From Bugula neritina (lineage: Eukaryota > Animalia > Bryozoa), in assembly GCA_964035545.1 (NCBI GenBank), contig OZ037766.1, positions 2,232,001 through 2,296,000 of the forward strand: a stretch of 64,000 nucleotides of DNA, written 5' to 3'. Positions 3,182 to 39,772 of the stretch are shown here, one piece after another. A model generated the notes under the pieces. That model saw nothing but the letters and a program-made list of their open reading frames with translations. It made no database searches and was not told where the DNA came from. Positions within the stretch are counted from its first letter, which is position 1, and each line of letters opens with the position of its first letter. A program made the position numbers and the translations under genes.

Positions 3182-6100
3182 ATGACTGATGTCATAGTGC
3201 AGTCAGAAGCTCATCTAGATGAGGTTAGTAGATAATATCTTCCATATCCTGTTCCTGCAGTACCATATGACCTAACTTGTCATGTGACTTGCCTTGTCAT
3301 GTGACTTACCTTGTCATGTGACTTACCTTGTCATGTGACTTACCTTGTCATGTGACTTACCTTGTCATGTGACTTGCCTTGTCATGTGACTGGCCGTGTC
3401 ACATTTGACTTGACTTTCCACTCATGTGAATGAACATTTCGAAACTAGCTTAGGTTTCTAATAGAAGGTTGGGTTCCAATTACCAGGGACAAGGGAATGA
3501 TAGTTTCTCACCCAACAGTTAAACTGTTGTATACTAGAATTCAGGCTTACCTATATTGTTTTAGGTAAAAATTATAATTTCATACCCAGTTCTCATCTAC
3601 ATACAATTTGTTGACCTATCACAATCCATCAGAACTTGTCATAGATAATTAAATTATCAAGTATAAATTTGTAAGAATTAATAATTGATGCAAAGCCACC
3701 AAGTTCCAAACCACTGACTCCAACTTGACAAAAGATTTCTCAAGGTGTGCAACCACCTGACTGGCATCTGATGGCTGGTGTCAAATGACACTAATATGAC
3801 ACTCTGATGTTGGGGTGTGATTACAAGACCACCCCTGAGACAATGCATTCTGTCACCTCACTCTACAACTATACAATAATCTGGAAAGCAACTCCTATTT
3901 CAAAGACAGGCCGAAGCAGGTAGTTGAAAAGAGAGTAGCGAAGGGGAAAATGACACTCAAAATAAATGCAAATGATTAAGTTTTCTTAATCTATTAGTTT
4001 TTTTATCGCTGTTTACACGCCTTCATTGATATTGGTTCTACTTCCCCATGCATGAAAATGTAGTGGAATAGTCCAGTAGTATCTACTCTATGAATAACAC
4101 CGAAGATTGAATTGTGTTGTGGTTATGGTTTTCCCTAGGTAGTTTGTGAAACAGAGCTGCTTGTGGGAATTAGCTAAATTTGAGAGCATCCTTCATTTCT
4201 GCCACAAACTCATTGTGAATATAGTAAATATGTTAGGCAAACCTTATTTTAAACTGGTACCATATATATACCCTGTGTTATTCTATAACCTTTGTTGTAC
4301 CACCCATGGGAAACACTGCCCCACAGTGTAAATAAATGGGAAGATACAGTAGTAGACTCTTAGGAACTAAAAATATGCACTAGAACTCTGTGGTTTCAGG
4401 TATGAAGTTAATTGCTTTGTGGTGTTGAGAGGGTAAAGACTAGACGTGCTGTTACAACTAGTAGTAGCTGGTAGAATTTATGATGACTTAGAGTCTTAGA
4501 CTTTAGAGAGACAGTTTACTAGGGACTAGACAAACAGTAGGCTCTGGTGTAGATACTGCAGTTTACACTTTTTTCATTTTATGAAAAATGTACTTTCTTT
4601 GTTCAATTTTTTGTGCATAGTTTCGGCTGAATTTTGCAACAATCGGTTTGTTCACTGATTCTACTTTTTGACTGAACTTCAATTGGATGTTTTGTAACAA
4701 AGAATTGAAAAACTTCCGTATGACTGAGTTTTTGCTATCCTAACACGCTGGAGGTAGTAGAGTAGGAATATACGGAGCAGGTATTGCTACTTTCAAAGCG
4801 TTCTGCACACAAATGTCTAGCTACTGTACAGTTACTGTCCTTCAACACTGCTTGCTACTATTCACTGTTAAATGTCAATTGTTACAAGCATGTCTTGTAC
4901 AGTACTACTCGAGTATCACCATTGTTAACCTGTTTACTTATCAGCTGTCGAGATTATATTGGCAGCATGCTGGGCTGCAAGTGAATGATTGAGTTGACAG
5001 CTCTATTGGCTTACATCAATTCAATTTTTCTCCTCTAATCTTTCAGTATCATTCCATGAAAACTTCTAGAAGGCATCTTCCAGTGACATGAAACATTATT
5101 TGTCAGTTGGACTCATAAAATTCACTGCTATTTCTTCTTACAGACCTGAAATATGTTTTCTAATGAATGTTGTACTTGGAGAGTGGTTATAGTTGAAGAG
5201 TTATTACAGCTGCAGTACTGCGTTTACTTAAGCGTATACACACTTATCTCTTCACAAACTAGATGTGCCTTTGTAACAATCAACCTATCCCGTAATAAAA
5301 CAATACAAAAGACATTATTTTTTTATTTACAGTGTAGTTGAGTGTTTATGGTGGGCGTCCACCTGCACTTGAGTTGTTTGTGTTTCTACTTCACTGATAT
5401 TATCTTGTGCAGATTTAGTGGAAGAAAGTCATGGAATTCTGAACAAATCAAGCTTTTTCTGACCCTAGAATAAAGTATTTTAATAGGTCATCTATACTTG
5501 ATGTATACATTCAAATATAAGCTACATTAGTGCAAATTAGAACAAACTTGGTTTAACATTAAATGGAGAAAGGGAATATAACAAACTTAATTTAGAGTTA
5601 AAATATGGAGAAAGGGGAAATATTTTTAGTAGTGGGTGTGTCCAGCTGTGACATCACTAAGTTGCCAGTCTAGTAGCTCAACAAATCTATGGCTTTACCC
5701 TACAGAAGCATGGAACTGTGTAACACAGGAGTTGTGTTGCCCCTCCTCAAGTGACAAGCAATGCATACATTACATTTATTCACCTCCTCAGTTTGCCTGT
5801 ATAATTCTCAACAACATTCCTACATGTGTACTTCTCATTACTAAGTTCTAGTATAGATAAGTATTTAAGTAGTATACACTACGTGTGTATATTTTGGTAT
5901 AAGTATTTTGGCATCTGCATTCTAGAATGAACACATTATCTCGTGTTGTTATGGCAGTAAACATTATGCAACATCTGTTATATGCTGTATTTGTTCTACC
6001 TATCTACTACAACTAGCAGTGTAGCTATCAATACTTATACTAGGTGACCTCTGATAACTGTTGATTGCTGCCGTGGCAGCAGGTCATTACTCGAGTGTAT

Positions 6101-9100
6101 ACAAATATTAATACTTCAGCCAACTGTAATTTCTCCCTTTACGTAATCTATTATGTAGTATTATATCTAGTGCGGCAAATGAAATTTGCTTTTTTTAACA
6201 AAAAGATATTTGAAAAGCTGTCAGAAAATATGTAAAGGCAACTGTGGCTGGGTTATCACGCTCCCCTTTAGTTGATTATTACACTGAGGCTACGATAATT
6301 TCTCTGTTTGTTTACTATACTCTTTATGGGCCATTACAGCTTGCATTGAAAGCTTTAAGAATGAATTATGAAATACCCTTTAGATGTATGACCACAAAGA
6401 ATGACTTTTATAGTTTCCACATGTCGTATTATTACAAGGCAATTAATAATTATATACCAGTACTTTGACTATTATATTTAGAAGCAAGCAAACCACTATT
6501 AATAAACATTATACTTCTATATGACTTTATTCTAAGGACTGTTTGTACTACAATGGACATTCTTCAACAAGAGTTAATAGCATGGCTGGAAGTTAAAAAT
6601 TAAATTACTAGCTGTATATGCACAGATTTTTAATATCACCATCATTTATTCTTTTATTAGATGCAATTATGTCAGTCATGATTAGCCTGAGTTTGTAAAT
6701 TGTAGTCTGAGGTAAATTTTCTTTACCTTATAACCCCAATCTACATACATCAAAACTAATGCTATATAAATTAATACAAATTGTGTCTCAAAGATTGGAA
6801 TGAACACTTTACCACTGTTTAGGGAGGGAAAACTCCCCAATTGCTATTAATATATATACACTTCAACAGTGTCCCAACTCTACAGGATGTTCCCCTTAGC
6901 TGTTAGACAGTTGACAGGAAATTGATAGTTGCAGAAGTGGCTTCGACACAGCACCGCATCAAAAGATTGAATCATATAACAAACAGAATGTATTAGCTAT
7001 TCTGTATCTTCAACAGTCTGCAGTTATTTGCTGCTGGTATTTGGTTTGTCTAAAGTTGTGTTGTTATACACCAATAGTTCATGTCCACATAAACATCTGT
7101 TAGTGTGCTATGTCAACACGTGTACACCACAAAGATTTTTAAGGGTAAGGTTAGGAAAATACTGGCCCTAAGACAAGCTACTCTCTCTGTTTAGTGTCTT
7201 CACACTCCCCCTGAGAGTTTCTGTTTGTTGTCTCCACCCCTGTGAGGGGTTCTGTGTATAGGGGGTTATAAGTTGGCTAAGCACAGTGTCACCCACCACT
7301 GGTAACCTGGTTTGAGACTTTTGTTTATAGCTATCGATAGAGCTAGTGATATCAAATACTCTTTTCCACACCGCCAATAGATTCCCAACACTAAACTTGT
7401 GTTCTAACCACTGAACCAAGACTCTCTCTATTGCATAACTTTTACACCAAATGCTGTAACTTGAATTTTAAACTGCTGATGGAGGTGAGCAGTTATATAT
7501 ATATAGAAACTTCACAGACACAGTGCACTGTGAAGTTTCTATATGTCTTTTCCAACCAGTGTCTCCTTTCGGTATTACTTTTCGAATTCTGTATCTGTCA
7601 AAGAGTTACAAGAATTTTATACACTACTGTATATAAACTCTGTGCAGCCACATGTGTGTCTAAATGCAAAGACACTGTAGGTCAGCATTGGCAGCTTCAT
7701 ATGTACTCAGCACAAAGCAAAATATTGACAGTATACCAATGCCTTTACTACCCCTCCTGACTACTACACTTGTGCCAGAAGTGGTCTTTAATTTTAAATT
7801 AAAGGCAGTTTGTTTCAAGTATCATTTAGAAACTTTAAATTTCTAAATCTTTCACTAAAAGTGGTTCCCAGTATGTTGATGACTTTGAAGTTCACATCTT
7901 GATTATTGGTTCATATAAAATTTTGTTTACCCAGACTATTAGATTTCATCTCTCCATCAATTTATTGATTTTAATTTTTATAGTGTTACATAAAGTATAA
8001 TGACTGATGATACATTGCAGCCTAGTCAGTTCTCAGAGCCTGTAGTCGGCAGCGAGACGCCCGCTGACTCTTCAACTAGGAGACTCAGTAAACTAGTTCC
8101 CCCTAAGAAGATTCACCATTCATCTCTACCAACACCCTCTAAGGCTAACGGGACCCACAACACCTCCTTCGAAGGTACGCTGTATTAGGAATACTAGATA
8201 CTTTCACTAACTGAAGGTCAAACTACCAGATTTTAGTGTTTTTCTGCCTCAAAGTTTTTTGAACTGACAAGCTGAAAACAAGAGGAAATAAAATGCAAAA
8301 TAAATTAACGGCATTGAAATTTAAGCCAGTAGTGAATTTTCCAATTTTCAATTCCAATTTCTCAGTGTGAAATAATATAGGCATACATATGTACAGTGGG
8401 CACAGTACACGATGATCAACTTAACTGTATGTACATATGTACTCTGTATATGTACACTGTGTATGTACTCTGTGTATGTACTCTGTTTACAGCCACTATC
8501 AGAGGTGGCCATGGGGCTAGATTTCTTGTAACCATCTTTTTTGTGAGTTTTCTGTATAAATCTCTTCTTTGATTTCTCAATACTTTAACAAATGATGTGA
8601 AACTTGATCACTGTTTATATCAACTATTACATATTCTACTCTCCAGTGTTATTCCGCCTAGAGATGCTATGGGAACACAATTTGGCATGATATGCTCAAG
8701 AATTATAAACATAATAGCAGTAATTAGTAAACATTTTTCCTGTGTTTTTGTACTTATACATTCCAGTATTAGCATAATAATAATATTAGCACTAATAGCT
8801 AGCAGCCTTTCATCCTTACATAATCATAATCTTTCCAACTCTCTCTACATAATGTAATAATTTCTTTCACAATCCAATCCTTACATTCTATCATTACTGT
8901 TGCAGTAGTAATAGCATGTTCAACCTGGTGCTAAATTCCTGGGAAATTAATAATTGAGTTTATGTCGCCCACCTCGCTATTTTATCTTATTGTTTTTTAT
9001 TGATTTTATTTAGACTTCTATTCTAAGCTTGAATAGCTGCGCTCAACTGCCATTGGTTGGGGGTTTTTATTAAGATTGTTTTTTACATGATAATATATTT

Positions 9101-12100
9101 GAAAATAGAAAATTCTTTAATTACTACGTTTTTGAGATGTTGGAGTTACCTTCTCACACAATATGTATGTTACTACAACCTAGGCTTTACAGTTTACAGG
9201 AATGACCTGAAAAAGTCTAAGAAATTACACTTCATTTTTGTTGTACAAAGTTTCTTGGAGTTTTTGTCCAGTTTTTTATATTATCAACTAAAACCCACAG
9301 AAATTGAAAAAAATCATTGAGTTCATCAAATTGCAGTTCTTAAGTTGAGTCTGCCATTTATTACTTTTCCAGCTAACTTGAGTGTAGAAAACTCAATCTA
9401 ATTGAATATTTTTGTGCATCCATGAAATTGGTAAGGTAGATTTTGACAGTTTGTAGAATAAGAATTTTACTGTTATATCGTCCTTTTAGCTCGGCAGATA
9501 CAATCAGCTTTACCCAGACACACAAAAGACACTGAGTCTGATCAAAATATATTGAGAGGCAAATCTCACACCAAACATTCCACTGACTCTGCTAATTCAT
9601 CTCATAAGGTAGGGAGTGAATCAGTGAGTGAGTGAGTGAGTGAGTGAGTGAGTGAGTGAGTGAGTGAGTGAGTGAGTGAGTGAGTGAGTGAGTGAGTGAG
9701 TGAGTGAGTGAGTGAGTGAGTGAGTGAGTGAGTGAGTGAGTGAGTGAGTGAGTGAGTGAGTGAGTGAGTGAGTGAGTGAGTGAGTGAGTTGGTGAGTGGG
9801 TGAGTGAGTGAGTGAGGGAGTGAGTGAGGGAGTGAGTGAGGGAGGGAGTGAGTGAGTGAATCAGTGAGTGAGTTAGTGAGTGAGTAGGTGATTAAATGAG
9901 TTTTAGTTAAAGGTTATGAGTGAATGAGTGAGTGGTTGAATGATTGTGTTTGATTAAGTAATTGGGTGAATCAGTGAGTTTGAGTGAGTAAATGATTAAC
10001 TGATTGTTTATAGGTGAGTGAGTGATGATAAGTTTTTAAGTGAGTGTAAGTGAGGAAGTGTGTAAGTTAGTGATAGGGTGGAGGTCTTTTGTAAAGCACA
10101 AACTTTCTTATAGCTCTATATTCATTCACTATAACACTGAGTTTAGGCAAATGTATTAATAGAAATGATGTCTTTAAATTACTTATAGGATTATGATAGC
10201 TAAGCTTTATTGTGCAATAGGTGTTAGATAGTGGAGTAGTAGAGAGAGGAAATCAGTATAATATAGTAAAACATTAGATGTTCAAGTAAAACTTTTTGCA
10301 GCTTTTTCTCTAAAAACTTGTATAAAAACAAGGTTATAATACAACATGACTAACTTGGAAAAACTATTCCAAATTGCAAGAATATCTTCTTTTGTGTTTA
10401 ATTTTAAATATTAAACTCAGTATATGCTAAGTCTGTTCCCTCTGAACAAATTTTAGCCCGAGTCTCACAGACTAAGCTGGTCAGCTCAGTCAAAGATAGG
10501 GAGTATGGAGAAGGCCCACCATACACCGGGTGGTGGAGATGTTAAGGTAAGAGGCTATCAAATTGAAGGTAAAAGAAAAGTTATGAACTTTGATATTTGG
10601 TTTATTATCTTTATAAACTTTTGAGCCTTTGATATTTTTTGTTGCTTTTGAAGATACTGTATGAAGATTTTGATCTTCTGATTGCTCTTAGTTATAAACT
10701 AGTCAAACTCATTTTTGAATTTATCCTTTCAAGCATAATTTGGAGTAATTTCAGCTGTTATTTTTGTAACCGAAATTTTCTTTATATGTTGTATACACTT
10801 CTGTTAGATTGAACACAACACTCTTAGCTGGAGTGCACAATCAAAAATAAACAGCCTGCAGCAAGCTAACAGGAGGCCCGCAGGTGGAAATGTAAAGGTA
10901 TGGTTGAAACTTGGCTACAGTAAATGTTTTTTAAGTCATACTACAGGTTTCTAGGCTCACAATTTTAAAAACAAACTTGTTTTATAGTCAGTTATAAAGT
11001 CATCAGTAAACTCTGCATTTCGTATTTGTTATCAGATTGAGAATCAGAGACTGAGTTGGAATGCAGAGTCTAAAATTAAGAGTTTGGAAAAGGCCAACCA
11101 CAAACCAGCTGGCGGAGATGTGCAGGTAAGTGGCGGGCTAGACAGTGACAGTCTGAGTGAGAGACAGAGATAGTCTGAGTGAAGACAGAGATAGTCTGAG
11201 TGAAGACAGAGATAGTCTGAGTGATAGGGAGTGAGGCAGGTCCCTATATTCTATCTCTTTACCTACTAACTTTCCCATTCAGCTTGTTTCAGCTGTTTAT
11301 TGGTTAAACTGATTGTACAGGTTGAATAGCTGAGAGGCTCTACGACAGACTAAACCAAAGAACAACAATTTTTTTCAAACACTAAAACTGCTAAAATTAT
11401 ACATAGAAAAGAAATTATGTATTTTATCATTATTATGTATCTATTGGAAAAGAACAGTTTTCAATTTGAAGTAGTCAAATGGAGTATGTTTCAGCTAATG
11501 GCTGTTTGTTTTTAGTAAAACCAGAAAATCAATGGTTGAATGCCCTATATTAGTACTAGTTGGCAATGGAACAAAACACCCTGAATGTCTGCCATTTTCC
11601 TCAAGCAGTTCACCGATAGCAGCCGAGAAGATAACTCTTAATTAAGGTTTCTATACAGAATAAGTTGTCTAGACACGTGTCACTAGTTTCTGCTGTTTGT
11701 AGATAGAAAACAAACGACTCAGCTGGAATGCTGAATCAAAGATAAAGAGTCTGGAAAAGGCCAATCACAAGCCGGCTGGAGGAGATGTCAAGGTTATATA
11801 ATTGTTTGCTCTCCGAATTGTTGACTTGAAGAGAAATATTCCCACAATGCAAAGCAAGCAGACAGAATATTAAAGCATTTTTTTAATTCATATTTTGATT
11901 GTTGAAAGAAATAATTGTTTGTGACTTATTGTTGTTCAACAGATAGAAAACAAGCGACTCAGTTGGAACGCAGAGTCTAAAATCAAAAGTCTAGAAAAGT
12001 CCAACTACAAGCCAGCTGGTGGAGATGTAAAAGTAAGACATCTAAGTTATACTCTCTGCTTACGTGTAATATGATTGTATTGGCTCAGTGTTTTACTGCT

Positions 12101-15100
12101 GGATCTGTGTTTTCAAATGTTTTAAGCCAACAACTAATTTTTCTGAATACAAAATGTCTTGCAAAACTTTCAAAGTTATTCTTGAAATGTGCTTGACAAG
12201 AAATATTTTTCGATTGGCCTTGATAGCATGTGAATGATATGACCCCTTTTTGATTGTATGCCTCCATAGATATTTCTTCTAAAATGTAAAATTCCGAATT
12301 TCTATCGAAAACTTCACTATTAGGTTTGAGCTTTCAACATTTTGGTAGCACACTGTCCTGTGTAAACACTTTTTTTCAAAAACTTAGTTTCTTTTCAATA
12401 AAAATATCGTAATGCACTTTATTCAAAGTGAACTATAGGTTGTATTTTGAGCGAGTGACTCAAATAATGGCTCAAGAGTCTCAATATTTGATTCAGTGTT
12501 ATTAATTAAACTTGTGCTAATATATTTCCAATAAAATTCTTATAGATAATTGCCAATTAAAATGTGTAAAACAATTATTTTTATGCATTTCTGCAACTTC
12601 TACATTGTAACAAATACTTTGATTTGAGAGTTGTCTTCTACCTAGAGCCAATACTCTTACAGCTCTAACCATCCTATTACTATATTAGTTCATTCACCTG
12701 TCGCTCTGTTTGTTATATAGATAGAGAGTAAGAAATTAAGCTGGAATGCCGAGTCAAAGATTGGGAGTCTAGATAAAGCCCACCATAAACCAGCTGGTGG
12801 AAATGTTAAGGTAAGGTGGTTATTAGTGATATATAGACATGTTTGGTATTCTTATTGTACCAAGTTTAGACTTGGGTGGTTTTTGCTTAATCCTATAACG
12901 GAAAGCTGTTTGCAAAAACCTTTGTACCAAGGCCACCATTTCTTTTAAATTTTTACCTTTAGGTTTAAAATGAGTTTCCGTGGTTTTCCTGTTGTAATTT
13001 GCATGTTGGGGTTAATTTTCATGTTTCTAGATTGAAAACCAAAGGCTCAGCTGGAATGCAGAGTCAAAAATTAGGAGTTTAGAGAAAGCCCACCATAAAC
13101 CAGCTGGGGGAGATGTTAAGGTTGGTTTGGTTCTAAAAATAAGCAATCAATTTAGCTTCTCTGCACATGGAATTTAATTTAATTATATTAATTAATATCC
13201 TTTTATACTAAAAACATAATTCAAAAAGAGTGTTGGACAATTTAATAGAAGTAAAAATTGTATATATTTGGTCATTGGTTGTCATTGGTTGGAGTTGTGT
13301 CATCAATGAAACTCTGCTAACCTTCATAAGTCTTGCCTTAAATAGTTTGATTTGAGTTTGATTTAACCAGCATAGAGTTGTCTGTACTTGTTTCTTGGTG
13401 TAAAAAAGTGAAAGCATTTGTGAGAAGTATCTTTTAATCCTACATAATGCATATTGCTGCCATGAAATAAATCTGTCTGGCGTAGAAATCTTCATGGTAA
13501 GTAAAACAAGGAATTGCAGGTTTTCTAGAAACACAAATAAGTAGTGGCCAGTTGAAAAAATTAAATTTTGCATCATTTTCTTATGTCAAAGTTTTCTAAA
13601 AACACACCTTTTCTGTTCCGTCAAATTGCTTCAACTCTCCATTCACATGAACTGATTCATTGTTTTCATATTTCTAGATTGAAAACCAAAGACTCAGCTG
13701 GAATGCAGAGTCAAAAATTGGTAGTTTAGAAAAAGCCCACCATAAACCAGCTGGAGGAGATGTTAAGGTGAGTTGTGCTGAATTAAAAAACATCCTGTTT
13801 CTACAGGAGTAGTGTTGAATTAAAAGTTCTAGAAAACATTATTTTTTTCTAAAAAAAAGTTGTTGTAATGTCAAGCACTTTGAAACCACATCTCATTGAT
13901 GACTCATGCGTATGACTCAAAGTTGACTGTCGACAGGCATATTGATTATCACAGAAAACAAGAGTTATTTACAGTTACTTTTGTATTACTTTACAAGCTT
14001 TAGTGAGACTCAGAAAAATTCTGGGTTATTTTGAAATAAAAACAGTCCTTTTTTAATTTCTAGGCAAATTTTGTCAACATTTTTAGAATAATTAAATGAT
14101 CTTTCATTTTAAACAACCCTGCAAAGTTCTGAATTTTTTTTCATTTTTTTTATCTCTAATTATTAAGGCCAGTATTTACACTGAACTTCGAAACATGTTT
14201 TCATGTCTGTGATATGTAATAAATCAATCAATCAAGCTTTCCTGGGCTCTTTTTAGTTTTCTCAAATATTTTAGATCTTTGAGGAGAAGCTGCAGTGGGA
14301 CACCGAGGCCCGTATTGGTTCCATGGCTAATGCTGCTTACAAGCCCGCGGGTGGGCAGGTCAAAGTAGAGTCCCACAAACTAGATTTCAAAGATAAAGCT
14401 AAGCCTAAAATTGGCTCTCTGGAAAAAGCCTCTTACACTCCTGGCGGGGGAAACGTTAAAATAGAGCAAAACAGACTCCAGTTTAAAGGTGAGACATTTC
14501 TCAGAGATATACAAATGATTGTTTGTTTTCTGCTGCCTCTACTAGAGGGTAAAGTGTAACTGACATTAAATTGCTGACTTAAATAATGTTGTTTCTTGCA
14601 GTATTGAAAAATAGTTTTAACTTTCAGCAAAAACCAGTTGACTGATTATAGAGTACAGCATGTTTAGCTATGGTTATGCAAGGGAAAAACTTGATGATTT
14701 GCCATTCTAACTTATTCCGCCATTTAGAAAATGGACTCCAGGATATTTCTGTAAACAATAGTGTCTTAGAGAGAGGATAACTCCTAAACTTAGTTCCTTA
14801 TCATGTGTAAACAGCTGTATTGTGTGATTACCTCGCAGCAATGAATAGTCCCTTCATTTCCACTGCTTGTAGAGAAAGCTCAGGCTAAGATAGGCTCCCT
14901 GAACTACGTGAGTCATACCCCGAGAGGGGGAGAAGTGAAGATTGAGACTCATAAGTTGGAGTTCAAAGAGAAGGCGTCTCCACGCATTGGTTCGCTGGAA
15001 AAGGCGTCGCATAGCCCGGGTGGTGGTAATGTGCAGGTATGTATTTACTTGTCTATTAACATGCCGTGGTGCGTTGTGTGCAAACATAATGTAAATATGT

Positions 15101-16690
15101 ACTAAGGATGTGTTTATAACACTACATTCATTAATGTTACTGTATATCTGTTAAATGCCAACTTATTTTGATAGTATATAATGTTTCTCTACACATATTC
15201 AAAGTCTATTAGATATTGTTATTTTTTGATGTAGCAACCACTACCTGGCAACACCTAGTTGTATTGTTTTGTTTCCATGGTTACCACTATATAATTAGCT
15301 TCAATTGTTCAACTTCTAGCATCACTTTTTCTGTAGATACTAAATGAAAAACTGAATTTTCGTGAAACGGCCAAGCCAAAAGTTGGAAGTCGCGACAACA
15401 TCGGCTATATCCCGGGAGGAGGAGATGTCAAGGTAAAGTGTGACTTCACAGAATCTATTAATAACCAGCTGTCTTTATTAATAGCTGAAAGTTGATTGCT
15501 ATCACCTTCTCTCTTCACACGAGTAACAATCTAGTCACAAGAAATGCTTGAACTTTTGTCTTACACTATTTTGCTGCTAACCATGTTTTCTACTTACTCT
15601 AACACTCACAGTGTGCATATTGCAGATTGAATATCAAGTTGTCTCCCCTCGCTCTGATTTCCTTTCCGGACTGTCCAACACCAAACCTGTAAGTTGCAGT
15701 CAAAACCAACTCTATTTTTGTTTTTCAGCAACTTTTCAGTGACTTTATACTTGATGATGAAACATACTACACAGAGGAGCAAATTTTTGTAAACAAGCCA
15801 ATAACTTCTTTGTGAATGAAAATGCGGGAGATTTTTTTCTAGAATTTGTTAAATAAAAAAATTAAATTGAAGTTTCACCGCTGCGCATATGTGTGTCATT
15901 AGAAAGCCAACATTTACATAATCTAACAATGCAGAGAGTTAAGTGCGCTAGAATAATGTATAACATAGAAAGACAATAGTGTGAGAGATACTGTATAACT
16001 TATCATAATCTGCCTTTTGTTGTTGGATATATTTTTATATGAACATCGTCTTTGAATGACTACTACACAATGTAAATGTAACTCTTGGTTTTTCGTAACC
16101 AAAAACTCTTCATCAAAATGTTTCTAAGTTTGTGTCCAGTTAATAGTTGTGCACTCACCGCTAGCAAATAATGAGCCTTGAAAAATTCTGAAATTAGTTC
16201 TGAAATATTCACTATAATATTGCAGCTAAATGTAATTTTATAGTCAAATGTAATATATTATATTATTTATTATTTAACACAAAAAACATCTGCTGTGAAA
16301 ATCTAAAATTTTGATCAACTAAATTTACTTTATTGAAAGCAGCATTTAGCTTTATATACTAAAATAATAACGTCAGCAGTTTTCAAATGACATCGTAGTT
16401 GATAAAAGGGTTGAGGTAATAAGCACAGACGCCACCATCCAGCTTTCTTACTGATATTTAACTGTTTTGTTTTTAATTTTCAGTATTTTTATGTGAAACT
16501 GAACAATAAAATGACTATGCTTTAGGGGAGAAGAAATAGCACTAGCAGCAGCACAAGCAGCGGGCCCCAGTTGCTCCAAGACGTGTCTGCCGCGGCTAAT
16601 GGAGCTAGTCATGTGACAGGTAATGACCTTGACATTGGTCATATGACCGGAGCTGATGAATCAGTCCCTTACCTGCAGAGTGATCTATAA
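3182..16690 (+). CDS. tau: Tau/MAP2/MAP4-family microtubule-associated protein with 13 tubulin-binding repeats (~571-578 aa)
   Basis: Phase-consistent exons: 3182-3223 (uncertain; alternative ATG at 8000), 8021-8174, 9490-9608, 10457-10546, 10808-10897, 11036-11125, 11703-11792, 11943-12032, 12721-12810, 13031-13120, 13678-13767, 14275-14488, 14873-15036, 15337-15432, 15626-15688, 16526-16690 (TAA). Repeats such as VESHKLDFKDKAKPKIGSLEKASYTPGGGNVK and IETHKLEFKEKASPRIGSLEKASHSPGGG carry KxGS and PGGG motifs. The C-terminus (VVSPR...LSN...SSGPQL...DVSA) resembles the tau tail. Probable non-coding exon ending 1447; AATAAA 17478. Confidence 0.92.
3276..3394. repeat. 17-bp minisatellite (cttgtcatgtgacttac) x7
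   Basis: Seven consecutive near-perfect units read directly; each contains GTCATGTGAC. Confidence 0.95.
7170..7420 (-). mobile_element. Degenerate SINE-like element (second family)
   Basis: Minus strand begins with an A-box-like TGGTTCAGTGGTTAGAA; higher GC than the intron background; a faintly similar segment lies near 3690-3840. Confidence 0.3.
9612..9900. repeat. (TGAG)n microsatellite, degenerating 3'
   Basis: Pure gagt tetramer array ~9625-9789 directly after the exon 9490-9608 donor; degenerate copies continue to ~10060. Confidence 0.97.
11143..11223. repeat. ~20-bp tandem repeat (gacagagatagtctgagtga) x3-4
   Basis: Direct reading; intronic. Confidence 0.85.
15231..15284. promoter_or_regulatory. 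Putative RFX X-box cluster
   Basis: GTTTCCATGGTTAC at 15271-15284 (reverse complement GTAACCATGGAAAC) fits the X-box consensus; half-sites TAGCAAC (15232) and TGGCAAC (15246) lie within 40 bp. Confidence 0.4.
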
Positions 16691-18767
16691 CAATGTCAAT
16701 CACCTACATACTCACAGTTTATATTAGATTATTTCTGTTCCTCATCTCTCTGATATTATGGTACAAGTGATGTTGTTAGGTATTGCTGTCATTCAATTCT
16801 GTGTAAACTGTGATAAAAATTCAAGAAAAAAAGTTATTTCTGTATATTTGTGTTTTTTATAAATAGCTTTTCTTGCCCATTGGAGTTTTATTTTTCTCAT
16901 GAAAATTGCTGTTTTAAGTTTGAGCTCTTACTAAGTTACTTGCAGCTTGCATTTAAATATTAACCTTGGTTTACCTTGAGAATATTTTCTTGCCAAGCCA
17001 TAAACCTCTCCAAGAAGTCATTAACATTTAGCTAGTCTTTGTTTAAGTGAAGGCATACTTTGTTAACGAGTGATTGGTTATAAAACTACTGCTGCCGCCA
17101 TATTTAAAATTCATAAGCACTGCTGACATGATTATGCAACTTGTTCTAAATATTCGTTTATTTTATTCACTTCTGCGTTGCATTACATTCTGTCAATTCA
17201 CCAAACTATGTTATAGATGTGATGTTTACGTTGTTCTGCATAGTTTGTATTCCTGTTAAAGCCTTCGGTATATGTCAGAAGATAATGTATTGCATAGTTT
17301 GATGTAAATTTCTTTTAATTTTTTATCTGTAAATAATTATTCATGTGTTTTTTTTGTTAAATTTTCAGGGATTTTGCTCTAACTCGAAATATTTTTAGGC
17401 GCAGCCCCTAAAGTACTTTTCTCATTTAGAGTCCATTACTCTGGGAGAAGAAACCTAACTAAGTCTTGTATGAATTCAATAAAATAGTTTTATTAGAAAT
17501 TCAAATCTTTAGTACTTCATCTGAAATATTAAAGTTAAATATTGCTTTAGTTATTATAGAGTCAAGTTGTGCAAAAAATAAGAACCTTGTGTTGTGACAT
17601 CGTCACATATACTGCGATATTGTCCCATGTGACATTTTTACCTATAATGTGGTATTGTTACATATTTTGCGATATTGTTGCACATGTCGTGATACTGCCA
17701 CACATTGTCATTGTTCTAAAAGTTTTCAAAAAGGGTTATTCTACCACTAACATTATTTTAAATTCCGCATAGCAGTGGACTATCTTAATATTCTATTTCA
17801 ACTATGAAGGTGACGCTTATTAGACAAACTATAGCATGATATAGGGGAAGGATAAATTGTCACTTGAATGCATTGTGACATCATTCTGAGATATTGGTCT
17901 TGGTACCTTTTGGAGTAGTATCGGCCATGTTTCCACAGGTTCAATCAGCACCAGGTCTTTAGCTTTCAATAATAGAAAAGCTGCAAAATAAACACATATA
18001 CTTCAAAACGGAAATTTATTGATAGATCATCGCAGGTACTGATAATCATTGTGAAATGCTGCAGAGTTGTTGAGAGCTAAGCTGTAGTACTCTCAGACTA
18101 GGAATAAATCTTTCATCACTCAACAGTGAAGCATTTGCTGGTTCTTATAATTGAAACTGGGACTTTTCCAGAGTGAAACTTTAGACATAGGCACATGGAA
18201 ATTTGACACTTGAAAACTGCCATTCTACTTTTATTCTTTTGTTTTAAATAACTATTCAATTTGTGATGTAATTAACATTGAAATTCGTGGAAACGCAGAT
18301 TTTCTCAAGAAATCTAAGAGAATTGGCAATTCCAAACTAAAGCTGCCATCATGGGCTGAGAAACATACAGCGGATATATTTATAGGCATTGCTTTTTATG
18401 TATCACTAACTGTTTCTTTGTCGTACACACAAACTAAATTTATAAAGACCCTATTGTTTAGATGTAGGTAACAAAATAATTAGGGCTGATTATTCAGGTT
18501 AACTAGTTATATAATTTGCATATAACATCAGCTATACAATACAGTTTGAGTTCGCACACTGTTACTATTATTTAAATACCTTAAAGCCAAGTCAATAAAC
18601 TAATTTCCACTTAATTAAACTAAGTTGCAAGAGGGCAATTAACGATTAATTACAAGTTATTATTCCACAACTGAGTTTTGTCTGGCAACAGTCAACTGAG
18701 CTCTGAGCTAAGCAACGCCAGCTCCTGAAGTGAAAGCGGATTTTGCAAGAATAGACTGAGCTTCAAG

Positions 18768-21700
18768 ATGAAGGTGAGACCAGCTACAACAGAATACAGG
18801 ACTCACTTTGGGCCCCCCACAGATAACTCTCCTGGAAAGCTACCAGCTTTCTACGGCACGGCTCCTCACAAGGCTAATGATTTCTCCACGACTATAAGGC
18901 AGTCGTATGAGGGTAGAAAACCCATGTAAGTGACTCGAGTCTAATTTTTAGTTCCAAATTTTCTTAGAAATAAAATAGTTTAGAGAAGGCTGTAGACTCT
19001 CTAAGTTATAACTATCCTGCACATATATATACTGTCTCTGGGACTACTACATACAAAATATCCTGTCTTAATAACTACTGCATGCAATATATTCTGTCTT
19101 TGTGACTATTACCTACAATATATACTCTCTTAATAACTACTGCATGCAATATATTCTGTCTTTGTGACTATTACATACAATATATTATACTGTCTTTGAA
19201 ACCAAATATCAACATATTTGAGTTGTTATTCTTGCTGACCATTATAAAAAATTGTTTCTTTCTGAGAAGACAAATTTAGTCCCCCAAGCTTGGTATTACA
19301 TGAAATTCCTGACAAATGAACAGCATGCTTATATACAGAGTGTGTAAAACATTGCTTCTGCTTCACTAATTAGTTGATGTGAGAGAGAGCAACTTTACTT
19401 TTGCACTAACTCAACTTTATTTACTAAGCTTTCAGTTTAGAAGTAAATTGCATGCACTTTTGTTGGAAGTAAATGAAGATTTTTTTGCAGTTCTAAAAAC
19501 TATCAATTGATTTTGATTAATTATCTGTAACAATGAAACACTTCATAAACTTGATACAAATATTAACAGTTAATTATGCATTAAATATATTACAAAAATA
19601 GAAGCAGTGGTCTAATAAATAAACTACTGTAAAATTATAAACCTAAAATTAATTTGTTATTATAAGCTATAGGCTGGCAGCTTAAATTCCGCTTTAAAGT
19701 TAAAAAAACATTCAGTTAAAACTGTCACTGCACTACCTTCCAGTTTTAACAACAGAATTTGCTGCAACATAATGTTCATGTAAAATAGCACTTAACATCA
19801 GTTATTGATTAATTAAGTTTTCAAATAGATCCAAGAACACCCTGATGGAAGATTGGCTGAAGAGGACTAAGAACAAGCACTTTGGAGCTTTCAAGGACAG
19901 CTACCCTCAAGCTGCTCCTTTCTCAAGAATCAGAGACTTGGATGCTAAGATTGTAGGTTCTTGACTATTAAGTTCATTGCTGGTAGTAATACTTGACTAT
20001 TTTAAGTCTGTCATAAAACATATATAACTATTATTATTACCTTTAATCGCATTGTTGAAAAGTATAATATATTATATAAGTGTAATATATTATATAAGTA
20101 TAATATATTACAGAACATGTGTGTCTTTTTATGGTTACAAGTTACAATAATGCAGTATGCTATATTATGATAAGTGTCACATATATTTTACATGATGATG
20201 CACTATATTATATATTACATAATATGGTATGGCAATAGTATGATGGTGTGTTTTGATTACTTCATTAGCAATGGGGCACACTTAAATATACACTTACCAT
20301 CTTAATTCACCACTAAACTATAAGCTTTCATGAGTGAAAACTATATACTTCCATATCTTTATTAGTCTGCTAAATGGTTTCACTGTTTTCTAAGTAGTGC
20401 ACAAACATACTTGTGAAAAACGCTGAAATATGTTGTGCATACACTAACACTTTTGGTTCTTTTTTTCCTAATTGATACATATTTTATTTCTGCAACTTTG
20501 TTTTGTCTTTTTTTCTTGGTGTAATTCTTATATATAATTTTATCTAATTGATCTTGTAAAGTTTTGCCTTAAATACTGAAATATGTTAACAGAAACTACC
20601 CAACTTACCCAATGGCTACCTGAGTTACAACAGCTCTGGATACAAGAGCTCGGAGATACCAACCGCGGAGGAACATTACAAAAAGAAGTACGAAGCTTTG
20701 CTGAGGAGACTTCAAGAGAAGCAGAAAGTACTCAACAGGAAACAGTGAGTCGAGCCGTGAAACTACTTTCAGTTTGAGAAATTAAAATTTGTAGCAAGAG
20801 AAAAAAAGTTACTTTAGTAACTCACCAGAGTAGGTTTATATGAAAGTTAACATTTAAACAGTTCAACCTGTTGAAGAGCCATAAAAAATCAAACTTTTGG
20901 AAGAGGTGCAGTCATAAATTTGGTGCTGACAGCTTTCAACCTAAAATATATTTAGTAACTAAGCTACCATCTGAAAGTATGGGATTCCATTGTGTCACAT
21001 TTAATGGTATTAAATTATATTATTATCAAACTGTGCATAGTTATATATAATGCAAGCATCTATAATTAATTTCTTGAATGTAGGCCAAAAAATTAGATCT
21101 ATATATTTTATACAAAATACTTTTAGTATTTCTATTTGATCATTTTTTTCTGTCGTCTGATTAATCAGTCTGAAAACTATGACTATTTGTTATACGTATA
21201 AAATAATAAATTATTTGAAAGAACATAGATTAATATATTATTTGAGCATCACATTTAATTGAGACTGCAATCAATTGAGAAATTTGTAGTAAAACAAGCT
21301 CTTTGAAACTCTGCAATTTCTAGCTGCATGAGTAAGTCCTGCATGTTTCTAATCTATATATCTTCAACTACACATTAAACTTATATGATTTCTAGCCAAG
21401 TATAGGTTCTATGCTTACTAACTATATTCATCTACATATATAAATAGCCAATTTATAATAGTCTATATATAACTTATATTTGCAGGAAATTACCTGGAGG
21501 TGGTAAAGGAGTCTGGAGACATATAAAAGAATCTTATGGAGCAGGAATAAACTTGCTTAGCTGGGTTGATGGTAATGATGACTCTCAAAATATTAGTAAA
21601 TAATTAGATACACACGCAAGAACAAACATATACACTCGTCGCACACACGCACACACACGCACACACACGCACACGCACGCACACACACGCACACACACGC

Positions 21701-22427
21701 ACACGCACACACAGGCACGTACATGCACACACAGGCACAGTTTTATTAGTTAGTTTTCCGAGTGAAATTGATGATTGATTGTATAACATAGTTTGCCATG
21801 TACTGTCTTTAGGAAGTAGATCTTTGATAGACAGCGGTGAAATGGTTGAAATGAACAGCGTAGAAGAAAAGCCAAAGGAATTCACTGGTGGAAAGGGGCC
21901 AAACAGACATATCATAGACAGTCATGGCGCGGGACCAACAGTCATCACTTGGCTAAGTGGTATGTGGAAGGTGTATTACTCATATACCTGTAGTTAGAGC
22001 TACAGAAATACCTGGGGGTAAAGTTCATCTACAATAATAAATTTTTTCCAGGTCTGTTTGGTCTTCTACATACCTGATATACATCATACAAATAGAAACA
22101 TTAACAAATTATAAAGAAATGCACAATGATTAGATTAGGATCACAACAAAGAATGATTAAAAACTTATCCTGGAAAGTTTTTTAATTTTTAAACCTTGTC
22201 TTTTATGTAATATATATCTAAGGTAATTAGAATAATACTAATTACCTTCAAACTGATTATGTTGCTATGTTTGATCCTCTTCAGGGTTACCAGTGAGAGA
22301 AAACAGATTTACTTCCTGTCTTCCAGTTTTGCCCACGTTGTATCAGCAATCAGTTGGACTGAGTGACTATCCACTCAGAGGGGGTCAGTTTAGAAAAGAA
22401 GAAGTAAAAGGATTAAAAGATGAGTGA
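18768..22427 (+). CDS. Uncharacterised 269-aa protein, candidate ciliary/flagellar microtubule-associated protein
   Basis: Six GT-AG exons in continuous frame: 18768-18925, 19829-19952, 20593-20744, 21486-21571, 21813-21959, 22285-22427 (TGA). MKVRPATTEYRTHFGPP...STTIRQSYEG...EEHYKKKYEALLRRLQEKQK (coiled-coil-like)...GGKGVWRHIKESYGAG..W / GGKGPNRHIIDSHGAG..W...TLYQQSVGLSDYP. Function is inference only. Confidence 0.8.
19020..19200. repeat. Intronic tandem duplication (ttaataactactgcatgcaatatattctgtctttgtgactatta)
   Basis: Two near-identical ~60-bp units plus degenerate subunits. Confidence 0.75.
21640..21738. repeat. (CA)n/(CACG)n microsatellite
   Basis: Direct reading. Confidence 0.9.
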
Positions 22428-24838: not shown

Positions 24839-24991
24839 ATGAGGATCCTGAATGCAAATCTGATTCAGCTGCTAGCCGTGGTACTTCTGGCTCTGACAAC
24901 CTTCGCTGCTGGGAGACAAGCTGGGGCCCCTAACCAAGTGTGTAGGTTTGTACCAGAAAAAGGAAGAATGATTTGCACAAATGGTAATTGA
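24839..24991 (+). CDS. Secreted peptide P1 (50 aa, 2 Cys): MRILNANLIQLLAVVLLALTTFAAGRQAGAPNQVCRFVPEKGRMICTNGN
   Basis: Below the ORF-track length cut-off; translated by hand. Signal peptide resembles P2/P5; VCR...IC aligns to the last two Cys of paralogues; acceptor tttacag 5 nt before ATG; AATAAA 25089. Confidence 0.8.
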   Translation: MRILNANLIQLLAVVLLALTTFAAGRQAGAPNQVCRFVPEKGRMICTNGN

Positions 24992-26706: not shown

Positions 26707-26892
26707 ATGAAGATTGCGAACTTTCCTATGCTGCAAATGGTTGCCATACTGCTGCTGTCACTGATAGCGTTTGCTGCCGCTGGACTCAGACCATGTTACA
26801 CTGATGACGACTGTGACCCCCCTATGGATGTGTGCAGAGAAATTTCGTTTGGAGGTGGTTTCGTGAAGGTGTGCCAGTATAGCGATGAGTAA
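26707..26892 (+). CDS. Secreted Cys-rich peptide P2 (61 aa; CYTDDDC-x6-C-x12-C)
   Basis: Hydrophobic signal ending AFAAA/G; 4 Cys; TATA ~26003, UTR exon donor at 26129, acceptor at 26699, AATAAA 27022. Confidence 0.88.
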   Translation: MKIANFPMLQMVAILLLSLIAFAAAGLRPCYTDDDCDPPMDVCREISFGGGFVKVCQYSDE

Positions 26893-29432: not shown

Positions 29433-29639
29433 TCACCAATTAATGGTTTTTGATGGCAGACAAAAACTTAAAATTTTCCCATCTCGTATGCCTGGGGCTA
29501 GTTGACACGTCCACCAATCAGTGCAGTCCTCATCTGACACACAAGGTCTCAGGGTAAGGGAAACTGAGTTGTGTGCCAGCAACAAAATTGATGCAATTAA
29601 AAGGAGCAACAATGAGGAAAAATAATTTGAAATATTCAT
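29433..29639 (-). CDS. Secreted Cys-rich peptide P3 (68 aa; LRPCVSDEDC-x5-C-x14-C)
   Basis: Signal peptide plus the family Cys frame; duplicate of P4; putative 5'-UTR intron (acceptor 29678, donor 30016). Confidence 0.88.
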   Translation of the reverse strand: MNISNYFSSLLLLLIASILLLAHNSVSLTLRPCVSDEDCTDWWTCQLAPGIRDGKILSFCLPSKTINW

Positions 29640-31342: not shown

Positions 31343-31537
31343 TTAAGAGCTTTTTGGTGGCAGACAAACAGTGATGGAACTCCAATCCTCTCTGCCTGGG
31401 ATTGGTTGACACGTCCACCTATCAGAGCAGTCCTCGTCTGACGCACAAGGTCTCAGGGAAACTGAGCTGTGTGCCAGCAACAAAATTGATGCAAATAAAA
31501 TGAGCAACAATGAGGAAAAATGATTTGACATATTCAT
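31343..31537 (-). CDS. Secreted Cys-rich peptide P4 (64 aa; LRPCASDEDC-x5-C-x14-C)
   Basis: As P3; the same candidate UTR splice sites are conserved (acceptor 31576, donor 31942). Confidence 0.88.
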   Translation of the reverse strand: MNMSNHFSSLLLILFASILLLAHSSVSLRPCASDEDCSDRWTCQPIPGREDWSSITVCLPPKSS

Positions 31538-35945: not shown

Positions 35946-36523
35946 AAAAGTTTAAATTACATATTATATTTTATTTTAGATATATTATTATACATATTAT
36001 TATTTAATATATTGCTGTAGGTATTGGTCTGTTTTTGAGCTTAATTATTTAAAATTTTGTACTATAACATTAAATTAATTAATTAATCAAGGTATATTAT
36101 TTTAACTTGAATAAAATACTAATTTCCATGATTCTTATAATACTTCATTGTTTTAATTACAAGCAGCATGATACTGGTACTGGCTGCCGTTCAATAGAAA
36201 TAAAAAATCGGATGTACAAGAAGAATAGAATTAATAACAAAACATAGCAAAGTGCACAAAAATATGTACATAATTACTGTTTATATATTTACTAGATAAT
36301 TTAATATATACTAACCTGTGACATTTGTATATAATATAATAGGAAGACAGGATTTCATATAAACTGCATAATTTGCACAACATATCTTAAAAATAAGTTT
36401 TGATTGCATTTTTAGCTAATGATTATTAGACGAAAACATTGTTGAAAGTTATACACAAAATATATCTTATGCTAAAATATGGCAAGTGTTGTTTGTTTAT
36501 TAATGATTTTGTTTTTAGCTAAA

Positions 36524-36721
36524 ATGAAGATTGCAAACTTTCATCTCTTACTGCAGAAGGTTGTCGTGCTGCTGTTGTGTCTGACAGCAGCTAGCTTTTC
36601 TGCTTCAGGTTACTGTAAATCAGATGCTGACTGCCCCCCTCAGAGACCTAAATGCGTACAAACTCCACGATTTTTTTTTCCTTATCGGAAATTTAGTGTG
36701 TGCAGTAATCCCGGTTATTAG
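36524..36721 (+). CDS. Secreted cationic Cys-rich peptide P5 (65 aa; CKSDADC-x6-C-x15-C)
   Basis: Likely start MKIANF (same as P2) at 36524, 5 nt after acceptor gtttttag; signal peptide; 4 mature Cys; AATAAA 36824. Confidence 0.88.
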   Translation: MKIANFHLLLQKVVVLLLCLTAASFSASGYCKSDADCPPQRPKCVQTPRFFFPYRKFSVCSNPGY

Positions 36722-37348: not shown

Positions 37349-39772
37349 TATAATAACAGGAAAATAGTTTGATGTATATTTATTTCAACTATTGCAATGT
37401 TTTCAGTAAGCATCTGCACTATATATGAAAGCATAGAACCAAAATTTTATTAAAAGTACAGAGGAAAGCACTGCAACATTACTTTTAATAACAATTATGC
37501 AATAATAAACAACTCGCTAATTTTTATAAAGTACTTCATAGAACACTATTGCTATGATAATGTTAACCTTTTAGATTAACATTATTACTGTCTATTTACA
37601 AAGGTAGTACGAACCTGTTATACCTGTATACATAGTAGCTAAAAAGGAGAAATTTATACGTGTATAAAACATAATTTACACATCATATTTAAAAAAGGTT
37701 TTGATTGCATCTTAGCTAAATATCATTAGACGAACAGAGAAAAGTACTACAACATTAATTTTAATAACAATTATGCACTAATAAACAATTTGCTAATTTT
37801 TATAAAGTATTTCATAGCACACTATTACAATGATAATGTTAAACCTTTAGAGTTTAAATCAACAAAGAATTTGGATAATGACCTTGTGCTTACTTAAATG
37901 CTCTATCCTGTAGACAATGTCTATTCCCTAATAGGTGAAACTGATAAGTATTATGTCATATTAACATAGTAACATATTATTAAAAATTCTATTATTGTTT
38001 TTTTATAGTTGGCTGTATATATACCGTGTTTCTTACAAATATTTTATCTTAATATGTCAATTTAAAGTCATATTTAATATAATATTATATTGACACAAAG
38101 TGTAAATCATGTGACTTTGGCAACAGCTCATGCTTTTGTAGAGCTAAAAGCATATAATGGTATGGAATATAGATAAAAAGCTTTGGCATAGCTTTAACTT
38201 ATATATTTTTGCTCTATATTTTGGAAAAAATGAATTTAGGGGCTGACTTATGATTATATAGGTATAAATTTTGATGCTTGAATGATGTAGAACTTTACTG
38301 CAGACCAGATATATTACATTTTTAATTATACTGCTCTGTGTTGCCATACACGGTATATATCACAAGTGCACGTGTCACATACATAATACTTGTGATATGC
38401 GTCATCTGTCACTAACTACCACTACTGTTATAGTAGGGGACAATGACCTTATGTCAAGGTTATATCTGTGTCAGATGCAGAGGTCATGATAGCGACAGAC
38501 CTTTCATATAGAGGTTGTCGAAAAGTGGATAAGATATTTATAAACTGCTATAACACTTACATAAAACTCTCTATCTCTCTCTCACACACGCACGCACACT
38601 TGCACACACACACTCTCTCTATTTTCCACACATGCACTCTCTTTCTCTTCAGAATCATAGTGATGAGTTTTACTCTGTAGTTTTTCTAACTTTAAAAGGA
38701 AAAATAAACGTAACAGCAAAGTGCTATATTCAGTCAAGTCAAAATACCATACATGTTTTAACAACAATTCTTTTCAACAAGGAAAACTTTTTGGCACTTT
38801 ACAGTTTAGCTTCCTCATGTGATTAATTTTAGTAACTAAAGTGTGAAATTTACCATATAGGAATATTGATTTATCATCTTAAATTGACAGTTTCAAAACC
38901 TGCCTAATATATACAAACAACTAAATATATCTGCTCTATTTGTCTTCATCTTTTTGCTGTGGAAGCTGCAGGTTTGTAAAGCATGTACACACTTCATATT
39001 TAACATTTTATCCTTAAAACTCAACATTATACTATAACAGGGTTTTTTTATACGCTGCATATATAATATTCTATTGTTTAATTGCTAATTAAAATCAAGC
39101 AAAACTTTTGGCAATTTGTATATCATTCTATATATGCAACAGTTAAACAAAATATTGCACAGTATTTATAATTATATAAGCTAGCTATATTATATATGTT
39201 GTCACGTTATATATATCTATAACAGTATAGGGTTGCATATGTTCAGCTTCATTAAAATGTATACATAAATTAAAATTAGCATATTTTATAGGCAATAATA
39301 ACATAATTATTATACACAGCTAGAATATATACTAATTATAGTAGAAAGAGATGAGGGTTTAGTGAAGTACGTTTCTATTTATAGTATTGCTTTATACAAT
39401 TGAACGGTATGTAGTATACATAATACATACTCGCACGTGAATATTAATAAAGGGAGGAGCATATATTATTATTGATAGTAGAAGATTTTCAAACTTGATC
39501 TTTAGTCAAAACTATCAATGCTAACATATAAGAGTCTTACAACAAAATAAGAATTCTTGTATATATGAGTTAATTTTTGTTATGCAAATAATAATTTATA
39601 AGTATCACTGAAGAAAAGGTTTATTGTACTGAGTTTGCTGTGAAGTTTTAGTCAACACAAAATGTTATCTTTATCTTTAAATGCCCATACGTACCTCTGT
39701 TTTTGAAACTGCAATTCAATGGTCTTGTTATATTTGTCATTATATGCATTTCATTCCATTTCATGTTGTAGA

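Follow-up and report, generated by a model that had tools for sequence, protein, structure and literature searches.

In human MAPT, exon 10 is a symmetric exon that carries one microtubule-binding repeat and can be skipped in frame, giving the 3R and 4R forms of tau. The KXGS motif of the repeats is a kinase site, and its Gly is part of the recognition rule. In the cryo-EM model of tau, one repeat is placed on each 80-Å tubulin dimer, and Ser258, Lys259 and Ser262 make contacts (bioRxiv 10.1101/267153). The cellular binding of tau differed only slightly between three and four repeats, and a larger number therefore need not mean tighter binding (PMC5221586). Teleost MAPT (Notothenia coriiceps and others) reached 5–7 repeats when an exon carrying one repeat, with phase-0 introns on either side, was duplicated in tandem (PMC4815063). 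Among invertebrates, the seven database isoforms of Lingula anatina tau (isoforms X2–X7, XP_013401991.1 and relatives; P0239, P0002 and P0240–P0244) have 4, 5, 6, 7, 12, 13 and 13 repeats.

Architecture of a 13-repeat gene in Bugula neritina

Our analysis confirmed that a genuine, spliced animal gene with 13 repeats, belonging to the tau/MAP2/MAP4 family, lies in the window, the whole 64-kb stretch of B. neritina DNA analysed. The Pfam profile PF00418 matches all 11 repeat-bearing exons, ten of them above the curated cut-off of 27 bits and repeat exon 2 at 17.9 bits, and all atlas neighbours of the protein belong to PF00418. Scanning all six frames of the window with the profile gave exactly 13 strong matches, with everything else at or below 4.4 bits, and the core motif is present at 13 places but not once in 50 base shuffles. 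The gene model is 578 aa long and stop-free, and tandem 30–32-aa tubulin-binding repeats lie in its C-terminal half, each of the 13 ending in P-x-G-G, a family feature, and keeping the core Ser. These results bear out the first-pass annotation, which had read a tau-family protein with nine 30-aa Trp-type repeats (eight of them on 90-nt phase-0/0 exons) followed by four 32-aa Phe-type repeats.

Exons, all on the plus strand, were compared with contigs of four sequencing runs aligned to the window; no run listed for the window is recorded as RNA, and X9, X11 and X12 were treated as such only on the ground that introns with GT..AG ends are spliced out of their contigs and not out of those of the DNA-like run X3. 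A first coding exon of 14 codons (3182–3223; ATG, GT donor in frame with the model) and a Ser/Pro/Thr-rich exon (8021–8174; AG/GT ends, open frame in the 578-aa model) are predictions only. They precede a third N-terminal exon (9490–9608) that is in frame and whose end matches contig loose ends before 10455 in X9, X11 and X12. The N-terminal 105 aa predicted from these three exons are Ser/Pro/Thr/His-rich and near neutral, and the repeat array is basic (net +26 across 398 aa). Eight Trp-type repeats lie on separate exons, each 90 nt, phase 0/0, AG/GT-bounded and backed by PF00418 and contig joints: repeat 1 (10457–10546; KIGS core), repeat 2 (10808–10897; KINS, the most diverged), repeat 3 (11036–11125; KIKS, read as KIRS in all four runs), repeat 4 (11703–11792; KIKS), repeat 5 (11943–12032; KIKS), repeat 6 (12721–12810; KIGS), repeat 7 (13031–13120; KIRS, read as KIGS in all four runs) and repeat 8 (13678–13767; KIGS). 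The remaining repeat exons, likewise backed by the profile and by joints, differ in layout. The exon at 14275–14488 holds Trp-type repeat 9, Phe-type repeat 10 and the start of repeat 11, and its phase-1 intron splits this Phe-type repeat, the remainder of which shares the next exon (14873–15036) with Phe-type repeat 12. Phe-type repeat 13 (15337–15432) occupies a symmetric 96-nt exon, again phase 0/0. Nine one-repeat exons, eight of 90 nt and one of 96 nt, can thus be skipped in frame. A 63-nt in-frame non-repeat exon (15626–15688) and the last coding exon (16526–16690; 54 codons plus stop; contigs and gene model) complete the gene, and the 3' UTR extends to at least about 17,200.

The Gly of KxGS is present in 8 of the 13 repeats and is replaced by N, K, K, K and R in repeats 2–5 and 7. 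By comparison, 793 of 843 homologous cores have it, and its loss in five copies is a distinct trait of the B. neritina gene. The residue also varies between haplotypes, as in repeat 3 (KIKS or KIRS) and repeat 7 (KIRS or KIGS). The five Gly-less copies still carry the core Ser, Lys and Ile; they would retain microtubule binding and fit the KXGS kinase site more poorly.

Probable copying of the Trp-type exon and constraint on the copies

The array probably reached 13 repeats as a single 90-nt Trp-type exon was copied in tandem over and over; growth by exon multiplication, as first proposed from the sequence, is supported. Unequal crossing-over would copy such an exon, exons 7 and 8 being the latest pair, and its phase of 0/0 would make the copying tolerable. 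At the DNA level exons 7 and 8 share 94% identity (5 of 90 bases differ) and form the youngest pair, with a pS of 0.20, while the other copies are 59–82% identical and their introns are unrelated. In the self-alignment, similarity reaches only a few bases beyond the exons and is strongest at exons 7 and 8. Pooling of the 15 pairs among exons 3–8 gave a pN of 0.07 and a pS of 0.75, which shows purifying selection on these exons, the amino acids being kept while silent sites are near saturation. In exons 3–5, 76–100% of the silent sites differ and the protein is 87–93% identical, and these copies have therefore been long kept and constrained. In addition, of the 16 coding differences between the runs and the window among the rows listed (109 further rows lie beyond these), 14 are silent.

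Whether the expansion was independent is a separate matter. The first-pass annotation had argued for independence from the intron site after PGGGxVK; this argument fails, because the site is shared. The introns here share their GGGxxK|I position with the isoform breakpoints of Lingula and Mytilus, and in human MAPT the corresponding place is the junction of exons 12 and 13, which lies between K369 and E372 (PMC5888940), and not the exon-10 borders. Sequence clustering weakly favours independence: seven of the eight Trp-type exons group apart from Lingula and mollusc Trp repeats (SH-aLRT 85), in a quick tree of 32 columns in which 74 of 114 inner branches are open, one foreign row falls inside the group and exon 2 falls outside it.

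Comparison with other long repeat arrays

The gene resembles Lingula tau in reaching 13 repeats, in mixing 30-aa Trp-type with 32-aa Phe-type repeats, and in the GGGxxK|I site, which is an isoform breakpoint in Lingula; the Lingula isoforms differ by whole repeats. It is distinct in composition, since Lingula has three Trp-type repeats and has mostly expanded the Phe-type, whereas nine here are Trp-type. The Lingula N-terminus is acidic and about 920 aa long, compared with the predicted 105 aa or so of B. neritina. Furthermore, Lingula has a leaderless first repeat (without the Trp/Phe leader) and a KCGS repeat. Neither this first repeat nor the 31-aa KCGS/KIGS-K second repeat of Lingula and mollusc type is found in the B. 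neritina gene, and the window contains no further repeat; the repeat that comes first here is of the Trp type, and its exon is joined directly to a non-repeat exon. Relative to the main tau gene of invertebrates, this gene may be a derived orthologue or a paralogue.

Mollusc tau/MAP2-like proteins have fewer repeats (Mytilus galloprovincialis 10, Nucella 10, Haliotis asinina 9, Mercenaria 9). They share runs of 3–6 repeats of the 30-aa Trp type (in Haliotis, three are identical), with some Gly-less cores, but their Trp runs are shorter and do not cluster with the B. neritina copies. The same family and the same top counts are found in sea urchins (Lytechinus pictus XP_063952560.1, 13; Strongylocentrotus XP_011660924.1, 12) and in the tunicate Clavelina lepadiformis (LOC143466172, 10–12), although these MAP2/MAP4-like and Clavelina proteins lack Trp-type repeats and have other units expanded. 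In the teleost genes, the Cys-containing second repeat was copied, up to seven repeats, rather than a Trp-type repeat up to 13 (PMC4815063).

The count of 13 ties for the highest that we found, with Lingula and Lytechinus at 13 and Strongylocentrotus and Clavelina at 12. The expectation that 13 would be rare is not supported: one brachiopod, a pair of sea urchins and one tunicate also have 12–13, which goes part of the way towards such counts being routine, and the gene is for this reason a neat illustration and not a novel sort of protein. The assumed vertebrate range of 3–5 repeats was too low as well, with seven in several fish and Anolis and eight in zebrafish mapta. Protein and library-wide profile searches revealed no close relative, the best match to a Trp-type repeat being 22 of 30 residues (329 proteins). 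Repeat types and breakpoints by themselves would tentatively place the animal near brachiopods and molluscs. We found no study of 10–13-repeat invertebrate proteins in a literature search that covered mostly journals outside subscription.

Splicing and the meaning of a long array

GT..AG joints between repeat exons occur in contigs of all three RNA-like runs and in none from X3, and every repeat exon is spliced in the RNA-like contigs. Exons 2–6 lie unbroken together on single contigs in two of these three runs: a 503-nt X9 contig comprises the tail of exon 1, the whole of exons 2–6 and the start of the next repeat, and a 470-nt X12 contig runs from exon 1 into exon 6. None of the contigs listed for the RNA-like runs covers all 13 repeats; contigs are graph paths rather than single molecules, and rare isoforms drop out of them. 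The 63-nt non-repeat exon is present in X9, X11 and X12, and X9 also skips it (contig joints and loose ends). We infer that most transcripts keep most repeats, with skipping confined to about exons 7 and 8 and one non-repeat exon.

The first-pass annotation had instead envisaged regulated cassettes, an extension of 3R/4R splicing in which the eight symmetric exons yield a ladder of isoforms with about 5–13 repeats. Their shared 0/0 phase would permit this, and isoforms range from 4 to 13 repeats in Lingula, while the three of Mytilus galloprovincialis have 10, 9 and 6. However, among the 15 joints listed, of 17 in the three RNA-like runs, not one passes over any of exons 2–6, which sit on the unbranched contigs described above. 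The exon 6-to-8 joint in X11 and X12 and the exon 7-to-9 loose end in X11 look like skipping, but they may be misplacement, because exons 7 and 8 are nearly identical and the sequences of the runs deviate by several percent from that of the window. A regulated ladder is accordingly unlikely in our estimation, and the regulated skipping established for MAPT exon 10 is only a potential of the B. neritina gene. The odd joints could also come from DNA rather than splicing, if some haplotypes or sibling populations carried a single exon in place of 7 and 8 (12 versus 13 repeats). The youth of this pair fits, and in X11 the exon that follows exon 6 begins like exon 8, the one that precedes exon 9 ends like exon 7, and a joint of 7 to 8 is absent from those listed. 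Yet X9 has the 7-to-8 joint and X12 has both 6-to-7 and 6-to-8 joints, which leaves such a polymorphism doubtful; X3 lacks cover over exon 8 as well as over two other expressed exons and is uninformative on absence.

The extra repeats may tentatively be read as a nearly neutral by-product, in which symmetric exons are easily copied, included repeats must fit the lattice, and 13 repeats act about like five. The counts among 150 library representatives form a smooth tail (5 repeats in 62, 6 in 36, 7 in 11, 8 in 6, 10, 11 and 12 in 2 each, and 13 in 1), different repeat types were expanded in different lineages, the number of repeats mattered little in cells (PMC5221586), and the variability of the normally fixed Gly fits relaxed constraint. 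The protein identity kept by exons 3–5 despite their silent divergence speaks against this reading, which we hold to be possible but somewhat improbable. It is very unlikely that long taus are length-matched rulers for a periodic microtubule structure such as the ciliary axoneme, with a central KIKS/KIRS block in the B. neritina gene resisting kinase-driven release. On this reading, separate expansions in B. neritina, the brachiopod, the sea urchins and the tunicate would all end at 12–13 repeats, which at one per 8-nm tubulin dimer span about 96–104 nm. The ciliary axoneme repeat is 96 nm, but the counts also fit a plain decaying tail, and a ceiling at 13 has low odds. That the array was mis-assembled or consists of dead exon copies is largely refuted and barely credible: tandem near-copies are prone to mis-assembly, but only exons 7 and 8 are similar enough, the other copies and their introns are too divergent, each exon is spliced, and the model is stop-free.

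Growth by tandem exon copying remains our preferred explanation. The gene product is predicted to bind and stabilise microtubules, its repeats being expected to be disordered and bound to a filament, and it would probably lie along a protofilament and stabilise a longer stretch than four-repeat tau. By analogy with the tau cryo-EM model, the array could tether up to 13 dimers, about 100 nm, and the hold of the B. neritina protein on microtubules is likely to extend further than that of human tau. The gene is a further example of the tau repeat array as an accordion, drawn out in animals through single-exon copying. It also offers a natural set of nearly identical repeats, some with the KxGS Gly and others without it, useful for testing repeat number and motif against microtubule dwell time, bundling and phosphoregulation. 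More than the B. neritina gene alone, the group of invertebrate proteins with 10–13 repeats is a modest open topic.

Structure and expression of the repeat array

The repeat array of the tau/MAP2/MAP4-family gene (10457–15432, +) begins with eight 90-nt exons bearing AG/GT ends and phase-0 borders, each of which encodes one 30-aa Trp-type repeat. The exon at 14275–14488 (+) carries the ninth Trp-type repeat, one 32-aa Phe-type repeat and the beginning of a second, which is completed by the exon at 14873–15036 (+) together with a third Phe-type repeat; the fourth is encoded by a 96-nt exon at 15337–15432 (+). This arrangement of eight 90-nt phase-0 exons and 13 repeats in total agrees with the first-pass annotation. 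Pfam PF00418 is matched by all 11 repeat-bearing exons, 10 of which pass the curated cut-off, and a six-frame scan of the 64 kb revealed these 13 repeats and no further one. In addition, the core motif occurs 13 times in the window versus none in 50 shuffles. The gene model, which includes two predicted upstream exons, comprises 578 aa with a single stop at the end, and is divided into an N-terminus of ~105 aa, a repeat region of 398 aa (net charge +26) and a tail of 75 aa.

The 13-repeat gene is expressed and spliced. Contigs from four of the 17 listed sequencing runs were compared over 9900–17600: X9, X11 and X12, taken as RNA-like, and X3, which is DNA-like. The GT..AG joints 1–2, 2–3, 4–5, 8–9, 9–10 and 10–11 and the two last joints are present in all three RNA-like runs, joints 3–4 and 5–6 in two of the three, and joints 6–7 and 7–8 in one each. 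X3 contigs cover intron sequence and contain none of these GT..AG joints. A 503-nt X9 contig spans the exon 1 tail, the whole of exons 2–6 and the start of the following repeat, and a 470-nt X12 contig covers nearly the same exon run. Furthermore, contigs with loose ends join a non-repeat exon (9490–9608) directly to repeat 1, and show a 63-nt non-repeat exon (15626–15688) both included and skipped in X9.

The proposed ladder of 5–13-repeat splice isoforms is not supported by these runs, as no skip of exons 2–6 occurs among 15 joints listed of 17 in X9, X11 and X12. An exon 6-to-8 joint in X11 and X12 and an exon 7-to-9 loose end in X11 suggest skipping of exon 7 or 8. Misplacement or a 12-repeat haplotype explains these joints equally well, because only 5 of 90 bases separate exons 7 and 8, and sequence divergence between the runs and the window amounts to several percent. 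Low-level exon skipping may still occur, since contigs drop rare forms. By comparison, Lingula database isoforms show repeat ladders that are at least predicted in another animal.

Other features of the window

Five short single-exon ORFs at 26707–26892 (+), 29433–29639 (–), 31343–31537 (–), 36479–36721 (+) and 39719–39943 (+) each combine a hydrophobic leader with a tail of four Cys residues showing a C-x-x-D-x-D-C pattern, and probably encode small secreted peptides in a cluster. Each of them matches Pfam Nodulin_late weakly, under the cut-off; a two-Cys ORF near 24840–24990 resembles them. Putative exons at 18768–18926, ~19830–19958, 20593–20745, 21487–21597 and 21815–21970 (+) likely belong to a downstream multi-exon gene, the last two having a GGKG...H-I..S.GAG motif in common. 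Two ORFs at 55571–55993 and 62538–62891 (–), both with GLCRAYCR and DDP.GT.APS stretches, are apparently paralogous, and low-complexity His-, Thr/Pro- and Ser-rich ORFs with a signal-peptide-like start at 51582–53189 (+) possibly encode a secreted structural protein. Pfam returned no match for the five exon pieces, the related ORF pair or the low-complexity ORFs.

Origin of the array and its intron site

Growth by exon multiplication, as first proposed, is upheld by the one-repeat exons and by between-copy similarity limited to the exons plus a few flanking bases. DNA identity is 94% between exons 7 and 8 and 59–82% for the other pairs among the eight exons. Over 15 pairs among exons 3–8, pS is 0.75 and pN is 0.07, values that indicate long-standing copies, judged by silent sites, under constraint at the protein level. 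A quick tree built from 121 repeats (12 of this gene's 13, the rest from 14 other proteins) unites seven of the eight exons in a group with one foreign repeat inside (SH-aLRT 85) and separates them from the Trp repeats of Lingula and molluscs; exon 2 is left unplaced, and most forks are open. The array likely arose by a lineage-specific series of exon duplications, weakly supported by the tree.

The intron position had been read as a sign of independent expansion. Whole repeats are present or absent among Mytilus database isoforms, the breakpoints falling at GGGxxx|I (slide of one residue), and Lingula isoforms are compatible with the same site (slide of one to three), these breakpoints being taken from protein isoforms rather than gene structures. 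According to PMC5888940, exon 12 of human MAPT contains K369 and exon 13 contains E372. The corresponding segment in bird tau is PGGGNKK-IETHK, which together with the K369/E372 split places the vertebrate intron at or within one codon of the equivalent site. We take the exact human border to be K370/I371. Because the Mytilus and Lingula breakpoints and the vertebrate border fall at an equivalent place, the site is likely old and shared, and the argument for independent origin no longer holds.

Of the eight copied exons, five carry another residue (N, K, K, K, R) in place of the KxGS Gly; among 843 distinct homologous cores this position is Gly in 793, Arg in nine and Lys in one. Fourteen of 16 listed coding differences between runs and window (with 109 further rows beyond those listed) are silent, and the only two amino-acid changes both fall at this position: Lys to Arg in exon 3 (11079) and Arg to Gly in exon 7 (13073), each in four of four runs.

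Repeat number and predicted working

Among 120 matches listed with a first profile, seven proteins have three repeats, 33 four, 76 five, one six and three 12. A Lingula-array search, a query that enriches for long arrays, gave among 120 listed of 4,629 matches 13 repeats in Lytechinus, 12 in Strongylocentrotus, 11 in Clavelina, 10 in Mytilus, Nucella and Rhizopus, nine in Haliotis and Mercenaria, and seven in Anolis and several fish. Cluster members include Lingula isoforms with 13, 13, 12, 7, 6, 5 and 4 repeats and Clavelina proteins with 10–12. When 1.84 billion representatives were searched with a profile, 1,522 proteins were found, each standing for a cluster in which longer members may be hidden; seven of the best 150 have at least 10 repeats by recount (10 by the search's own column). 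Since these 150 reach at most 13 matched stretches, 13 repeats ties for the top of a recurring tail, high yet not unique, and the supposed rarity of the count is not sustained.

Nine Trp-type repeats are the joint highest among 434 proteins compared, equalled in the pair of tau-repeat proteins P0003/P0245. As compared with Lingula and mollusc proteins, the Bugula gene lacks a KCGS-type repeat and has a short predicted N-terminus. Trp-rich tau-repeat proteins P0003, P0272, P0299, P0267, P0273, P0332 and P0348 (one from Lineus) form a loose group in which most members lack a long acidic N-terminus and several show divergence at the repeat ends; they possibly constitute a second, little-described subfamily.

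MARK kinases are specific for the KXGS site; copies with Lys or Arg for Gly would add charge and fit this site less well. In a tau cryo-EM model (bioRxiv 10.1101/267153), each repeat extends along the protofilament over ~80 Å, one tubulin dimer, Ser258, Lys259 and Ser262 touch tubulin, and Ser262 phosphorylation weakens binding. Equivalents of these three residues are present in all eight copied exons. With one repeat per dimer and the contact residues kept, the 13-repeat protein is predicted to tether up to 13 tubulin dimers over ~100 nm. Near-neutral growth of the array is a real rival to a strong effect of repeat number, because 3R and 4R tau differed little in cells (PMC5221586).

A literature search found no study on 10–13-repeat invertebrate tau proteins. 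The Bugula gene is real, expressed and correctly counted, a clean case of exon multiplication in a known family, by a mechanism published for fish MAPT repeat-exon duplication (PMC4815063) and with a count common to other marine invertebrates.
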